DNA of 64,000 nucleotides from Promethearchaeota archaeon (GCA_048938105.1 JBHLMN010000001.1:96001-160000); one strand, 5' to 3'; shown: positions 539 through 8,151, counted from the first letter of the stretch. Translations and numbers: made by a program. Notes: generated from the sequence alone by a model not told the origin.

Positions 539-1441
539 TTATTCCTCTCTACTAGCTTCAATAATTAATTCCGCAAACACTTCCATATCTTTTAACAAAG
601 CTTCGATGTCCTCTGGAGGATCAATAGCTGCTCCTTCATCTACCATAATGAGAACTGCAAGCACAAAACTAAAAATGTGTAATTGTAATTTCTTTGTATC
701 AGAAACTGCGGAAAACGAAGCTGAATCACTTGTGAGGAAATTCTCCCGTAAGACATTACAAGAAAGAATATAATCACGCAAATCCTCACGGAGCTGGATT
801 CCCGTCGAAAAACCCTTGATACTGTGAGTAATAACATTCCCATTCACATCACTCACTATAATCTTTGAATTCAGCTTCATAAGGTGCTTTTGAGCATGCT
901 CAACACTATCTCTCAATTGATCAAAGTCTGAAATCAAAATTTGGCGAAAGACTTCACTTAATTCTTCTTGTCGATAAATGGATGTAATGAAAGATTCAGG
1001 TTCATATTCATGGATAAATGGTAATTCTCTGGCTTTGTCGAGATTCTCTTCAAGCTGTTCCTTAGGATATTCCTCAGTATCATACTTATGATAGAAAATA
1101 ATTAATCGGGGTTCTCCACCATTTTCCTTAATAGCGGAATACACCTGCTTGAAGTAATCATCTGCTTTGTTAAAATCCTCAGGATGATGGAGATCAAGGA
1201 CAAGAATTAAAACCGTGGTGTTGGCAAGAAGTTTGGGGGTCTCAAGGTAAGATTGGCGATATTTTTCTTGTCCACCAAAATCCCAGAGGGAAATTTGAAG
1301 ACCTAGATAGTTATGGGAGCGCGTTTCATACATGATAGTCGGCCCGAACTCCCTAGTCTGAATAGGGGTCATTCCACCTAATGTCGTTGAATAGATTGAC
1401 GTTTTACCACAACCACTTAGTCCAACAAGTGAAATCTTCAT
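539..1441 (-). CDS. Rag/Gtr-like small GTPase with C-terminal Roadblock-like domain
   Basis: G1 GLSGCGKT, G2 PTIMYE, G3 WDFGGQ, G4 HKYD, G5 TSI (HKxD and TSI are typical of Rag/Gtr). C-terminal IIVSDVNGNVI segment is Roadblock-like. Confidence 0.85.
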   Translation of the reverse strand: MKISLVGLSGCGKTSIYSTTLGGMTPIQTREFGPTIMYETRSHNYLGLQISLWDFGGQEKYRQSYLETPKLLANTTVLILVLDLHHPEDFNKADDYFKQVYSAIKENGGEPRLIIFYHKYDTEEYPKEQLEENLDKARELPFIHEYEPESFITSIYRQEELSEVFRQILISDFDQLRDSVEHAQKHLMKLNSKIIVSDVNGNVITHSIKGFSTGIQLREDLRDYILSCNVLRENFLTSDSASFSAVSDTKKLQLHIFSFVLAVLIMVDEGAAIDPPEDIEALLKDMEVFAELIIEASREE

Positions 1442-3576: not shown

Positions 3577-3773
3577 GAATCGAACGCTCCAACACTAGAA
3601 CAAAAAAGAAACGAGCTTTTTTTTTTCAGCGAACTATCAGTTTTTTCTTAATAGAAGTTTATACACTTCTTATCAAGGACTTATATAAAAAGATTTATTT
3701 GATGAATCGTAAATCTTTACACTTGCAATTGTGTAATTATTTCTATGTGTAAGTTTTCGAGAGGTCTATCCTA

Positions 3774-4778
3774 ATGAGTCACTACTTAAAACAATTGAAA
3801 ACTCAGAGTTCTCGGAAAATAATACTTTTAGGTCTTTCGCAAGCAGGAAAAACATCTATTCGTGATGTAGTCTTTGAAGGGAAAGCACCTGAAGAAACTC
3901 AAAATTATGCAGCGACTTTGAACTATGAACGGCAGATTGAGCAAGTTGCGGATGAGCCAATCACCGTTATGGATTTGGGAGGACAGGAAGTCTTCTTGAA
4001 GCGTTTTTTGAGTAGTATGAGTTCGTTTATCTTCAGTAATGTTGCTGTGTTAGTTTTTATATGTGATATTGCGACTCCTGAGAAATTTCCCGCTTCACTA
4101 AAAGCATTTGTTGAAGGTGTTACTCGGTTAGAAGAGATGTCAGACGTGCAACCCGCTATTTATGTCCTGTTACACAAGACAGATCTTATGCCCGACCTTA
4201 CACAAAGGGCTGAAAGGATGGAATTCTTGATGGAAATGTTTCAGGATGCGGCAGCAACAAAGAGTATAACATTTTTGCAAACATCTATATATGACAATTC
4301 AATTCATGAGGCATTTAAGCGAATAACTGCAGAGGCAAGTGAAGTCATTCCTGAAGTAGAAGATATAGAAAAAGAAGAAGATTTAGAAGCTATTAAACAG
4401 AAACTTAGACTTCGACCGATCCAACAGGTTCTTCACACACTCAAGTTTATGAATCGTCTGGATGAGGTCATTTTAATATCATTAGATGATCCAAACTTTA
4501 AGATTAACGCATCAGAATTAGAGGATAATGAAATCAGGCATATATTGACTCTCTTAGACAAATCAAACGACCTAAGATTAGTTACTGGTTCAAAATCCGA
4601 ATTAGAGCGATTAGGATCAGTAATGATGTATAAATCCAAGATTCAACCGAATCATTTGTTGATTCTAATCTCTAGAGACGATAAATCAATGCTAGAAACT
4701 AGAAACCTTCAAGAAATTGAAGAAACCGTTGATCTTCTATCTAATCAACTTGAATCAATGCTTAAAACACCAATTTAG
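3774..4778 (+). CDS. Rag/Gtr-like small GTPase with C-terminal Roadblock-like domain
   Basis: RKIILLGLSQAGKTSI, YAATLNYE, MDLGGQ, IFSNVAVLVFICD, HKTD, TSIYD, all closely resembling RagA/Gtr1 motifs. Confidence 0.9.
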   Translation: MSHYLKQLKTQSSRKIILLGLSQAGKTSIRDVVFEGKAPEETQNYAATLNYERQIEQVADEPITVMDLGGQEVFLKRFLSSMSSFIFSNVAVLVFICDIATPEKFPASLKAFVEGVTRLEEMSDVQPAIYVLLHKTDLMPDLTQRAERMEFLMEMFQDAAATKSITFLQTSIYDNSIHEAFKRITAEASEVIPEVEDIEKEEDLEAIKQKLRLRPIQQVLHTLKFMNRLDEVILISLDDPNFKINASELEDNEIRHILTLLDKSNDLRLVTGSKSELERLGSVMMYKSKIQPNHLLILISRDDKSMLETRNLQEIEETVDLLSNQLESMLKTPI

Positions 4779-4788
4779 AGGAGTAAAT

Positions 4789-5715
4789 TTGCGTCAAAAC
4801 CTTATCGCGCTGTCAGGATTATCCCATTCAGGAAAGGATCTTCTATTCAACCAACTCATGAAGCTAGGGAGGTCTGAACCTGATCTAAAGATTTTACAGA
4901 ATGTAGTCTTCTTTGATTGGTTAAACACGTCTTTTAAAAAAGAAGACATGTATTTTGAAACTTTACTTCCATCTATTCGTGAAAAGATCTTAATGAAAAT
5001 AAATACTCTGATTTATGTCCATGACATCTCATACCAACTACTAGATGAGATATCCACTGACTTTCAGAATATAACTTCCAATATCAGTACTATTAATAAA
5101 AACTATCAAGTGGTTCTTTTATTAAATCGAGGACATTTAATCCATAATGAAGCAGAGCGTAATAAGGTAAAGAATGTAGTTATTGCGCGCTTGCAAGAAT
5201 TTTTTCCTCAAGAAATTCCCTCTTACATTGTTTCGCTTAAGGGACCAGATGAACAAAGATTAACTAACCATATTTTTACACAAATAATCAAAAAAGCCTC
5301 CGAATTTAGCAAACAACTTTACTTTGAAGAACAGTTGAATCTAGATCAAGAAAAACAGCTTCAAGTCGAGAATATTTTGAGTGAGAAAATGAACACCTAT
5401 GGTTTCGCTGGAGCTTTTTTATTGTCTCGAAACCATAACATTATTCTAGCTAAAGGAAAGAGTCAAAGCTGGCAGGAGAAGGTTGGACCCCAAATTATTC
5501 GCATGTTAGATCAATATGAAGCATTTGATGTTACTCCGCAGGCAAAAATGAACATTCTTCGAATTGAAGATTTTTTAATGTTAACTCAAACTATTACTAA
5601 AGGAATGAAATTGATATTAATTGGAATAGAACCTACACTTAATCTTGAATCCTACAGCACTATAGAACAAATATGCCTCGAGATATCAAATGAGCTTATT
5701 TCAAAGCTGAATTGA
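4789..5715 (+). CDS. Degenerate (pseudo) Rag-like GTPase with C-terminal Roadblock-like domain
   Basis: P-loop GLSHSGKD (S/T replaced by D), no DxxG, G4 position reads NRGH, yet TLIYVHD and the strand pattern of the G-domain are retained. Start re-called to TTG 4789, which has GAGGAG upstream and avoids overlap with the previous gene. Confidence 0.7.
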   Translation: MRQNLIALSGLSHSGKDLLFNQLMKLGRSEPDLKILQNVVFFDWLNTSFKKEDMYFETLLPSIREKILMKINTLIYVHDISYQLLDEISTDFQNITSNISTINKNYQVVLLLNRGHLIHNEAERNKVKNVVIARLQEFFPQEIPSYIVSLKGPDEQRLTNHIFTQIIKKASEFSKQLYFEEQLNLDQEKQLQVENILSEKMNTYGFAGAFLLSRNHNIILAKGKSQSWQEKVGPQIIRMLDQYEAFDVTPQAKMNILRIEDFLMLTQTITKGMKLILIGIEPTLNLESYSTIEQICLEISNELISKLN

Positions 5716-6533
5716 ATCATAAAGCCTGTGAAAAGATGAAGCAAATGATTTCTGGACTTATTGTAACTGCGATGACCGATATGGGGCCATATCCTGTACT
5801 TAACTTATCCCCAATCTCTGAGGACACAACGGTTAAACTAAGTGTCATAGGAATGACTATCCTCTCTATGGGAGCAGGAACAGTAGCAGAAAAACAGCAT
5901 TATCGTTTACATGGTTCCATACCTATTCCTGATTCTCCCACTTTAGAAGCCTTGGCAATGTCTTTCACGGTTACTCCAACAAAGACCAGTGATGTACGCA
6001 TTGACCAACATGGCCGTGAATCAACCATCTGGTTATTATTCGAGTCTAAAGATCGTAATCGTATTTTTCTTCAACATAGTTCCATCGAGAAAGCCCTAAA
6101 AGAGGAAATTAGTACTATCCACATCGAAGATAACCTCTCTGATCCTACTATCATGAACCGAATTCTTGATCGTATTAAAGAAATGCTTAGTACGGCAGAA
6201 ATCCCTACAGAGACACCCTATTATATTCCTGAAAGAGGAGGATTGGAATTCTATACTATCAATGCAGATGGTGACCTAATCGAACTGGAAACTAGTGTTG
6301 ACCTCAGTGCTTATTCTATATTGATGGTAATCAATGCTGTTGTTAAACGAATATTTCTAATAAAACTAGATGATTCTACCCCCCAGCGACTCATGTTTTT
6401 AGCCGGCCGATCAGCTTCAAACCTAAATGTAAACCGCTTTAAAAATGAGTTTACGATTCGTGATGTATCAGATCCAATCGAACGTGATATGATTCTTGAA
6501 AAAATTGGGATCATTCAAAAGATTGGCGTTTAA
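5712..6533 (+). CDS. Hypothetical protein: putative N-terminal longin/uDENN-like domain and C-terminal gelsolin-like domain
   Basis: N-terminal LIVTAMTDMGPYPV resembles the longin/uDENN start. C-terminal DLSAYSILMVINAVVKRIFLIKLDDSTPQRLMFLAGRSASNL resembles a gelsolin repeat. TTGA overlap with the upstream gene. Confidence 0.55.
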   Translation: MNHKACEKMKQMISGLIVTAMTDMGPYPVLNLSPISEDTTVKLSVIGMTILSMGAGTVAEKQHYRLHGSIPIPDSPTLEALAMSFTVTPTKTSDVRIDQHGRESTIWLLFESKDRNRIFLQHSSIEKALKEEISTIHIEDNLSDPTIMNRILDRIKEMLSTAEIPTETPYYIPERGGLEFYTINADGDLIELETSVDLSAYSILMVINAVVKRIFLIKLDDSTPQRLMFLAGRSASNLNVNRFKNEFTIRDVSDPIERDMILEKIGIIQKIGV

Positions 6534-6549
6534 ATGAGGTCTAGTAAAA

Positions 6550-7479
6550 ATGTCTTATCTTGCGAGGAAAAAAACAAGTAAAATTCTGATCTTAGGGTTA
6601 GCAAAATCAGGAAAATCAACTATCATACGAGTGGTAACAGAAGGAATAATCCCCTCGAAAGACGAAAATTATCATGCTACCATTGATTATGAACGCAAAC
6701 AAAAGGTCATTGCTGGCACAGAGCTCACTCTTTTCGATTTAGGGGGGCAGACAGCCTTCCTTGACCGGTTCACTGGAGAATTATCAGAATTTATTTTTAG
6801 CGGAGTTAGAACTTTGGTGTTTGTGGTTGATTCAATCGAAATAAAAGATATTTCAAGGGCAAAATATTACTTAGATTTATCATTAAAGAAATTAGCCCAA
6901 TTTAGTCCTGAAGCTTCTGTCTTCATCTTTCAACATAAAACAGACCTGATTCCTAAAAAGCTTCAAGATGAAGTCAGAAAAACAATCAGGGATTATCTCT
7001 CAACAGGAGTTTCTCAACAGCTTAAATTTTATTCAACTTCCGTTTTTTCTGACTCTGTCTTTAAAGCGATGGGAGATGTATACGCTGAAGCCAGTGGTGC
7101 ACGTAAAACTCTAAGACCATTACTAGAAACCTTCATTCGCCATAATGCGGCAGATATGGCACAGATATTCACAAAGGAAGGCGCACCCCTAACACAAGTG
7201 AAGGATATCTCAAAATTTGACCATATATCTTTATCAGAGGTAAAAAACTTTTTTGACGCAGTTGTAGAACGCTTAGCAAATTCTGAAAGCCAAAGATCAA
7301 CATCTGTTCTTGTAGAATCAGATCGCCGTGTATTCATCATTAGATTTATGGAGAGTGGTTTAGCTTTATTCTTTGGATTTCCTAAAGAACGCCTCAGGGA
7401 GAAAAATGAGCAAATCCCTTCTCTTTATAACAAAGTACTCGCATTCAGTTCTCAATTAAAAAGTATGATAGAATCTTAG
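6550..7479 (+). CDS. Rag/Gtr-like small GTPase with C-terminal Roadblock-like domain
   Basis: KILILGLAKSGKS, YHATIDYE, FDLGGQ, IFSGVRTLVFVVD, HKTD, TSVF. C-terminal AQIFTKEGAPL segment is Roadblock-like. Confidence 0.9.
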   Translation: MSYLARKKTSKILILGLAKSGKSTIIRVVTEGIIPSKDENYHATIDYERKQKVIAGTELTLFDLGGQTAFLDRFTGELSEFIFSGVRTLVFVVDSIEIKDISRAKYYLDLSLKKLAQFSPEASVFIFQHKTDLIPKKLQDEVRKTIRDYLSTGVSQQLKFYSTSVFSDSVFKAMGDVYAEASGARKTLRPLLETFIRHNAADMAQIFTKEGAPLTQVKDISKFDHISLSEVKNFFDAVVERLANSESQRSTSVLVESDRRVFIIRFMESGLALFFGFPKERLREKNEQIPSLYNKVLAFSSQLKSMIES

Positions 7480-7596: not shown

Positions 7597-8151
7597 ATGA
7601 ACTGTAAACTTTTACACCTGATTTTTGATAAAAGAGATCAATTTCACTTCTCATTTAACCGAGATGCGCAAGTAGAAGCAATTCTTGAGTTGGGACGGGT
7701 GAAAAGAATCAGTATTGACTTTTTATCTGATATATGCCATCATCCGAAACATCCAAGTCGGATTTTTTGGCATGAAATTCCAATAGTTTGTATCAGATGC
7801 TTTGGAATCCAATGTGATTTTGAAGTGCTTGATAATACACACAACATCCTATTCCAACTCATTCAACCTGTGATCCAACTTCCTGCAGTACGATATATTG
7901 CAATATTAGTCAATCTTGCGCTACCAGGGTGGAAAAGTCATCAAGAGTTTATTATGATCCTCAATCGTGTGGGAAAATTATTACTTATCCCTTGTGAAAT
8001 AGCTCTAACCCCATTAGAACTACTAAAAATTAAGAAAAACTGGAGAATTCGAGTTAATAAGTTGATTGAGTTAAAGAATAATTATAAGTTGTTGGATGCC
8101 ATTGCGCCTCGGTTATTTCCAAACAGTGAATTTCGAATATTTATCCAATAA
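7597..8151 (+). CDS. Hypothetical protein
   Basis: 184-aa ORF filling the gap between co-oriented genes; no motif recognised. Confidence 0.55.
   Translation: MNCKLLHLIFDKRDQFHFSFNRDAQVEAILELGRVKRISIDFLSDICHHPKHPSRIFWHEIPIVCIRCFGIQCDFEVLDNTHNILFQLIQPVIQLPAVRYIAILVNLALPGWKSHQEFIMILNRVGKLLLIPCEIALTPLELLKIKKNWRIRVNKLIELKNNYKLLDAIAPRLFPNSEFRIFIQ

Follow-up and report, generated by a model that had tools for sequence, protein, structure and literature searches.

A conserved Hodarchaeales gene cluster of Rag-family GTPases and a longin-gelsolin protein as their putative regulator

The stretch of DNA analyzed here, referred to as the window, comprises 64,000 nucleotides (nt) of a Promethearchaeota archaeon (GCA_048938105.1, JBHLMN010000001.1:96001-160000; contig C52:96001-160000 of genome G000, which is 5.85 Mb in size and 99% complete), and the source names on close homologues identify its origin as Hodarchaeales/Heimdallarchaeia within the Asgard archaea. 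Positions 3774-7479, counted from the first letter of the window, hold four open reading frames (ORFs), all on the plus strand and separated by 10-29 nt, which are designated g1 to g4. Briefly, g1 (3774..4778, +, 334 amino acids (aa)) and g4 (6550..7479, +, 309 aa) encode Rag/Gtr-family GTPases, g2 (4789..5715, +, 308 aa) encodes a Rag-derived pseudo-GTPase, and g3 (5745..6533, +, 262 aa) encodes a protein with a predicted longin domain and a predicted gelsolin-fold domain, the likely regulator of g4. In eukaryotes, Rag GTPases and the longin-containing GTPase-activating proteins (GAPs) GATOR1 and FLCN-FNIP are central to nutrient signaling, and the origin of this system is debated; the Heimdallarchaeia-type Asgard group is widely held to be closest to eukaryotes.

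The arrangement of the four genes is compatible with a single transcript. g2 starts with TTG 10 nt past the g1 stop and is preceded by GGAGG, g4 starts 16 nt past the g3 stop, and the Shine-Dalgarno-like GAGG(T) boxes together with gaps of 10, 29, and 16 nt suggest, by spacing, that g1-g4 are co-transcribed. A TATA-like A/T box (ttatataaaa, 3681..3690, +), located 84 nt 5′ of g1, is a candidate archaeal promoter element on the evidence of its sequence; a sigma-70/terminator scan was set aside as uninformative for an archaeon. A preliminary description of this locus, made from the DNA alone, had proposed four tightly coupled genes, and its gaps of 10 nt (g1-g2) and 16 nt (g3-g4) are right, whereas the TTGA overlap that it placed between g2 and g3 requires a g3 start at TTG 5712. 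Since every homologue begins at the Met encoded by ATG 5745 (MISGLIV...) and none at TTG 5712, g3 probably starts at 5745 and is separated from g2 by 29 nt. The predicted structure of g3 discussed below was built from the 5712 start (273 residues), and the residue numbers of g3 motifs are counted from the 5745 start.

g1 and g4 belong to the Rag family by sequence and carry full nucleotide-binding motifs. Against the Pfam family Gtr1_RagA (PF04670; curated cut-off, 22 bits), g1 scores 122 bits (3.1e-35) and g4 scores 117 bits (8.6e-34), and the best PDB sequence matches of both are Gtr1/RagA, ahead of Gtr2/RagC (g1: 8e-20). The G1-G5 motifs are complete in both proteins, with GLSQAGKT, DLGG(Q), HKTD, and TSIY in g1 and GLAKSGKS, DLGG(Q), HKTD, and TSVF in g4, HKTD being the Rag-type G4 motif. 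The two are 35% identical, in the G domain only, and the ratio of non-synonymous to synonymous substitutions (dN/dS) is 0.02-0.04 for g1 and 0.03-0.04 for g4. In g1, the G domain (residues ~15-195) is followed by a C-terminal domain (residues ~200-334), and g4 likewise consists of a G domain and a Rag-type C-terminal domain. A profile of the g4 family covers residues 10-273 on Schizosaccharomyces pombe Gtr1 (2.2e-28), 2-273 on Gtr2, and 6-279 on LokiRagO, so that the alignment extends well into the roadblock C-terminal domain of these proteins, whereas the alignment of the g1 profile is limited to the G domain. The C-terminal 75 residues of g1 match the C-terminal domain of g2 (hhalign probability 93%, E 3.5e-7), and the ESM Atlas provides a further weak lead toward a roadblock in g1. 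Profile comparison detected no similarity of the g4 C-terminal domain to g1 or to g2, and the roadblock assignment of g4 therefore rests on the alignment with Gtr1/Gtr2.

Other Rag-type genes are present in genome G000. A six-frame search yielded 37 Gtr1_RagA matches, most of which are short Ras/Arf-like GTPases barely over the cut-off and about eight of which are strong Rag-type matches (<1e-19). A second Rag pair is located on contig C28:57968-61347 (L059:8069-11448), where a gene for a 729-aa protein (N-terminal Gtr1_RagA, 5e-32) is divergent to one for a 300-aa Rag (1e-37); the C-terminal extension of the 729-aa protein, ~530 aa in length, has no Pfam match.

The third member of the family, g2, matches Gtr1_RagA with 27 bits (3.6e-06) over residues 53-135 only; BLAST detects no similarity of g2 to g1 or g4, and a full-length hhalign comparison of g4 with g2 reached only 6% probability. 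The AlphaFold2 structure of g2 (predicted local distance difference test (pLDDT) 84) returned Rag/Gtr chains as all of its top 43 Foldseek matches, LokiRagM and LokiRagO among them. VIA aligned residues 2-171 with the G domain of RagD (Z 14.4); over residues 183-308, its matches were MglB (Z 13.4), the C-terminal domains of RagA/C (Z 12.6 and 10.9), and roadblock proteins of Asgard archaea. A G-like domain is assigned to residues 2-180 and a roadblock to residues 183-308. The degenerate P-loop GLSHSGKD (4816..4839, +) carries Asp at the Mg2+-binding Ser/Thr position. Among 30 orthologues, S12, S14, G15, and K16 of this loop are invariant and H13 and D17 are kept in at least 90%, DxxG is absent ("DW" stands there), and NRGH replaces [NH]KxD. 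g2 is called a pseudo-GTPase because its G1-G5 motif set is incomplete in these three places. Its open frame is intact in every genome examined, and its dN/dS of 0.11-0.21 is above the values of g1 and g4, yet clearly purifying. g2 is single-copy; of 20 further genomes in its Genome Taxonomy Database (GTDB) genus, 19 contain it, and it was not found at E <= 1e-8 in 61 other genomes of the class. In a tree of G domains, it lies on a very long branch within the g4-like group (support 86/93), a placement that is unsafe. Taken together, sequence and predicted structure identify g2 as a lineage-specific pseudo-GTPase under selection, which is predicted to have kept the Rag fold and has lost the Mg2+-binding Ser/Thr, DxxG, and NKxD.

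g3 and 34 relatives match no Pfam family, with no match to Folliculin, NPR2, or C9orf72-like at E <= 1, and neither g3 nor any family member matches Pfam Gelsolin. The AlphaFold2 structure of g3 (pLDDT 78) consists of two domains with a disordered linker between them. The first (5745..6191, +), comprising residues 12-160 of 273, has the longin topology β-β-α-β-β-β-α-α according to DSSP of the predicted structure. Its best match in VIA is the Lokiarchaeota Roadblock-Longin protein (8yqg_B, Z 13.2), followed by C9orf72-SMCR8 (7o2w_A, Z 11.6), Lst4 (Z 11.1), the FLCN complex (6nzd_H, Z 9.8), and the NPRL chains of GATOR1/SEA (8fw5_B, Z 9.2), whereas adaptin sigma/mu, SNARE, TRAPP, and DENND longins are lower (Z 7-8.2); Foldseek agrees. 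In the ESM Atlas, the neighbors of g3 fall into clusters with Folliculin, NPR2, FLCN/SMCR8-uDENN, C9orf72, and Avl9/DENND11, and these families have shares of 19-23% in archaeal clusters, a weaker, feature-based lead. The second domain (6240..6512, +), comprising residues 177-267 of 273, superposes on Thorarchaeota ProGel (7c2f_D) with Z 10.8 over 87 aa and a root-mean-square deviation of 2.4 Å, on gelsolin, villin, and fragmin with Z 8.3-9.5, and on Asgard 2DGel with Z 8.6-8.8. A profile of the wider family also has ProGel as its top PDB sequence match, over the whole domain and weakly (E 0.039, 16 bits); a profile of the close g3 homologues alone found nothing meaningful in PDB.

Conservation in the wider family is concentrated in a few positions of the longin domain. 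An exhaustive profile search yielded 114 relatives of g3, ~20 of them full-length at 27-44% identity, and the positions conserved at that range are D12-x-G14-P15, G57-x-x-P60-x-P62, D83-x-R85, and G90-R91. The Gly-Pro (GP) motif (5784..5789, +) at residues 14-15, with which strand β2 opens in the predicted structure, is invariant in 31 close homologues, and of 35 family members, whose identity goes down to 27%, at least 90% keep it. R85 and R91 (D-x-R ... G-R, 5997..6017, +), which are located in the β4-β5 loop and at the start of β5 according to DSSP, are invariant in the genus and kept in at least 90% of the wider family, and make this pair a candidate arginine finger. g3 as a whole has dN/dS of 0.06-0.15. 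As modeled, g3 combines a longin domain of FLCN/NPRL2/SMCR8/C9orf72 type, which carries a GP motif and two conserved Arg residues, with a gelsolin-fold domain C-terminal to it.

The GP motif has been described at the end of the β1-β2 loop or the start of β2, next to the arginine finger, and as specific to the GAP longins FLCN, NPRL2, SMCR8, and C9orf72; it is reported to be absent from FNIP2, NPRL3, adaptins, TRAPP, and DENND (PMC12290439). GAP is the most likely activity of g3 because it has the GP motif and the conserved Arg residues and its fold resembles that of GAP longins more closely. Should g3 instead act on g4 as an exchange factor for guanine nucleotides (GEF), its fold matches to DENND1A, DENND10, Mon1-Ccz1, and TRAPP longins (Z 7-8) would be explained, and GEF activity is the more typical one of longins (PMC12290439); GAP-type longins nevertheless score higher (Z 9.2-11.6) than GEF-type longins (Z 7-8.2), and DENND, TRAPP, and adaptin longins are reported to lack the GP motif, which makes an exchange factor very unlikely.

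The gelsolin-fold domain raises another alternative, namely that g3 serves not as a GAP but as an effector or adaptor, a non-catalytic scaffold whose longin domain binds g4-GTP while the gelsolin domain couples it to actin or another target. The best matches of this domain are actin-binding Asgard and eukaryotic gelsolin domains (Z 8.6-10.8; ProGel E 0.039), and conserved adjacency and fusion of g3-type and Rag genes, described below, suit an effector as well as a GAP. Proposed regulators can be effectors: Myxococcus RomRX, once proposed as a GEF of MglA, is reported to be an effector that binds MglA-GTP (PMC13408092). By contrast, the GP motif and an Arg in the β4-β5 loop have been reported as specific features of catalytic GAP longins (PMC12290439). 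Furthermore, Sec23, which is also among the fold matches of g3, has a gelsolin fold too, and the fold need not therefore mean actin binding. A purely effector role is considered unlikely.

Two further observations concern relatives of g3 in the same genome and genus. A 341-aa paralogue on contig C4:23593-24618 of G000 (L058:6594-7619) shares the g3 longin domain (E 1.1e-26) and has a different C-terminus; its gene adjoins an SPFH/Band-7 gene, and is two genes from an Rce1-like protease gene, and none of the five flanking ORFs scanned encodes a GTPase. The generalization that GP-type longins always adjoin GTPases is ruled out by this paralogue. In genome G057 of the same genus (91% complete, 7% contamination), the g3 orthologue (L045:3455-4258) contains one in-frame TAA, which could be a sequencing error or a true disruption.

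Within the genus, the order g1-g2-g3-g4 is kept in all 18 loci fetched, in which identity to the window is 75-96% for g1, 74-96% for g4, 61-91% for g3, and 48-84% for g2. The flanks, comprising a Rag paralogue, a major facilitator superfamily (MFS) transporter, a 115-aa ORF, a 184-aa ORF, an M50 peptidase, and ABCE1, are kept as well, and the whole 12-kb neighborhood is syntenic. More distant homologues of g3, at 27-44% identity, are adjacent or fused to a Rag gene in 7 of 10 informative contigs, and 8 of the 10 have any Rag neighbor (two further contigs, L056 and L057, end too early and are outside the 10). A Gtr1_RagA gene (302-319 aa, or cut by the contig end) lies directly 3′ of the g3 homologue in L049, L050, L054, L055, L060, and L062; L049 represents genome G396 from another family of the same phylum, and in L055 the two genes overlap by one base. 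In L053:6001-7794, from the metagenome-assembled genome (MAG) GCA_048939065.1, labeled Promethearchaeota, a g3-type and a g4-type Rag sequence are joined in a single 597-aa frame by a linker of ~10 residues. In L051, the Rag gene is upstream of the g3 homologue and divergent from it. Flanking genes differ among the distant contigs, and in the G-domain tree the adjacent and fused Rags of the distant lineages group with g4. Since distant lineages pair g3 with a g4-type Rag, g3 and g4 are the old core of the cluster, and g1 and g2 additions in the genus.

Other proteins encoded near the distant pairs include Rag-like proteins of 890-993 aa directly after the g3-g4 pair (L050:3002-5983 and L055:4252-6924), which are orthologues of the 729-aa protein of contig C28. 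In L049, the genes divergently upstream of the g3-Rag pair encode a Ras-family GTPase (5149-5817, -; 2.2e-41) and a protein of 327 aa that matches no Pfam family (4140-5123, -). Two g3-family paralogues stand in tandem in L061:5001-6798 and in L057, from the soil metagenome PRJEB21930, and by analogy with FLCN-FNIP or NPRL2-NPRL3 these might form a heterodimer of longins.

On this evidence, we favor, with slightly more than even confidence, the reading that g1-g4 constitute a conserved Hodarchaeales operon for a GTPase switch of the Rag/Gtr type and a longin-domain regulator dedicated to it, the role of g3 being inferred from fold, motif, and genomic context. In the proposed mechanism, g3 would bind the G domain of g4 and control its nucleotide state, most probably by GAP activity in which one of its conserved Arg residues would be inserted next to the GP motif, in the manner of FLCN, NPRL2, and SMCR8. 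The Rag-like proteins would pair through their roadblock domains, as expected from the family, with g2 as a non-hydrolyzing partner added in this lineage, and the gelsolin-fold domain may provide localization or output, to actin or another partner. A complex prediction of g4, GTP, Mg, and g3 from separate alignments gave scores of 0.21 and 0.01, the mark being 0.32, and is evidence for neither side.

Several points weigh against this reading. Synteny within the genus says little of a specific linkage because unrelated neighbors are kept as well. The fusion is seen in one MAG, where a stop codon may have been lost through faulty assembly or sequencing, and a search for longer g3 homologues, itself weak evidence, found no other fusion. 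No Rag gene stands beside the g3 homologue in L061 and L063, two of the 10 informative contigs. The known GAP longins work as heterodimers of two longins whose C-terminal domains are DENN or others, whereas g3 is a lone longin with a gelsolin fold and the operon holds no second longin gene. The catalytic Arg of NPRL2 (Arg78) and of FLCN (Arg164) is located just before strand 5, and the correspondence of R85/R91 to this finger, which we assume from loop position, is a lead only. g3-g4 binding, co-transcription, and enzymatic activity are all putative, drawn from sequence and models.

Some of these points would also suit the view that the four genes are co-located paralogues and a neighbor that form no complex, their adjacency being due to local duplication and inherited order: the 12-kb neighborhood is syntenic throughout the genus, Rag-like genes are common in the genome, as the 37 Gtr1_RagA matches illustrate, and the C4 longin paralogue and two distant g3 homologues lack GTPase or Rag neighbors, respectively. 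Mere co-location is nonetheless highly improbable in view of g3-Rag adjacency that persists at 27-44% identity among unrelated flanks in seven contigs, including a natural fusion, of gaps of 10-29 nt that leave little room for separate promoters, and of purifying selection on all four genes.

Most of the preliminary description has held. Its two Rag-like GTPases are confirmed by the strong Gtr1_RagA matches and intact motifs of g1 and g4, its degenerate Rag-like protein by the predicted Rag fold and conserved motif loss of g2, and its "longin/gelsolin-like" protein by the predicted structure and fold searches of g3. The Roadblock-like C-terminal domains that it proposed are supported by predicted structure in g2, by profile alignment in g4, and indirectly, through the g2 C-terminal domain, in g1. 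Gene order, which it expected to be conserved, is so in the 18 same-genus loci, and g3-Rag adjacency recurs in distant Asgard lineages. Of the refuting outcomes that it had named, none was fully observed, and its co-transcribed heteromeric switch with a built-in regulator stays a putative one. The suggested position upstream of TORC1 found no support: Asgard archaea reportedly have no homologue of mTOR's catalytic domain (Liu et al., bioRxiv 10.1101/2020.10.19.343400), nothing ties the module to TOR kinase, and this framing was dropped.

Outside the four genes, the ORF at 539..1441 (-; 300 aa), noted earlier as a nearby GTPase of the same kind, is indeed a Rag-like paralogue (Gtr1_RagA, 77 bits, 2.1e-21), but it is not part of the unit, being on the opposite strand with an MFS gene between; in the G-domain tree it sits in another, more distant clade. 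Downstream, 117 nt past g4, the window encodes a 184-aa Cys/His-rich ORF without a Pfam match (7597-8151, +), which is syntenic in most same-genus genomes and fast-evolving (33-88% identity); tblastn did not detect it in L045, L047, and L048, and it is probably not in the module.

g1 and g4 resemble the eukaryotic Rag/Gtr proteins (RagA/B-RagC/D, Gtr1-Gtr2) in the Gtr1_RagA match, the HKxD form of G4, the length of ~310-330 aa, the order of G domain and roadblock-type C-terminal domain, and the lack of a lipidation motif. They differ in that both are nearer to RagA/Gtr1, with no A-type/C-type split evident, and in that the operon adds the degenerate g2 and encodes no Ragulator or TOR. Among Asgard archaea, GTPases with a roadblock are the closest counterparts, and the g2 structure and g4 profile match LokiRagM (8zla/9m28) and LokiRagO (8yl2). 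In strain MK-D1, an operonic Rag-like pair is predicted by AlphaFold2 to form a heterodimer via roadblock domains, and as a rule GTPase genes do not share operons with those for roadblock proteins, longins, or TRAPPC3 (Tran et al., 2024, PMC10933270); by contrast, the present operon includes a longin protein, and the pairing is conserved.

g3 shares with FLCN-FNIP, GATOR1 (NPRL2-NPRL3), and C9orf72-SMCR8 the longin fold (Z 9.2-11.6), the position of GP, and an Arg in the neighboring loop, and, like FLCN and GATOR1, it appears to have a Rag-family GTPase as its client. Unlike FLCN and SMCR8, it is a single protein of 262 aa with a gelsolin fold where theirs is DENN, and, unlike FLCN and NPRL2, it has no sequence-level Folliculin/NPR2 match and its GAP role is putative. 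The C-terminal domain, which is akin to ProGel/2DGel and gelsolin/villin in its superposition on ProGel (87 residues, 2.4 Å), differs from Asgard gelsolins in being fused to a longin and in lacking a Pfam Gelsolin match.

Two other systems keep a small GTPase gene beside a regulator of the roadblock/longin superfamily. A conserved Asgard operon comprises a LAMTOR1-like roadblock protein, a Rab-like GTPase, stressed as non-Rag, and a DENN protein (Liu et al., bioRxiv 10.1101/2020.10.19.343400); the present operon is similar in this pairing within Asgard genomes and differs in its Rag-family GTPases and its FLCN/NPRL2-type longin regulator without DENN. In the bacterial MglA-MglB system, the regulator gene likewise adjoins the GTPase gene, and the g2 C-terminal domain resembles MglB (Z 13.4), although MglB is a free roadblock-domain GAP, MglA has no fused roadblock, and the sequences described here belong to the Rag family rather than to MglA.

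Asgard Rag-like GTPases with a roadblock, including one operonic pair (PMC10933270) and recent PDB entries, are already known, as are FLCN/NPRL2-like and GP-motif longins in Asgard genomes (PMC12290439; Liu et al., bioRxiv 10.1101/2020.10.19.343400). In the searchable literature, no description was found of a Rag-family GTPase and a GP-motif longin being paired, in a conserved operon or by fusion, of a longin-gelsolin architecture, or of a selected Rag pseudo-GTPase. Heimdall longins have been reported to carry the GP motif, and whether their partners are Arf-related or Rag GTPases was posed as open (PMC12290439), while gene order rarely helps to pair Asgard GTPases with regulators (Tran et al., PMC10933270). 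The locus provides genomic evidence for a GTPase client of archaeal GP-motif longins, namely a g4-type Rag.

A further, joint reading, judged clearly unlikely, would see in the operon a present-day relative of the system from which the eukaryotic Rag-GATOR1/FLCN axis descends. If true, the GAP acting on a Rag-type dimer would be a single-chain GP-motif longin, wired by its gelsolin domain to the Asgard actin cytoskeleton, Rags and longin GAPs would first have run the cytoskeleton or membrane protrusions, with the nutrient role at TOR and the lysosome recruited later, and g2 would be an archaeal parallel of the asymmetric "locked" Rag heterodimer. The operon itself bears on eukaryogenesis and on the evolution of Rag and TOR: the open partner question becomes a problem of four proteins, and since these are small and soluble and the residues concerned can be named, it is directly addressable at the bench.

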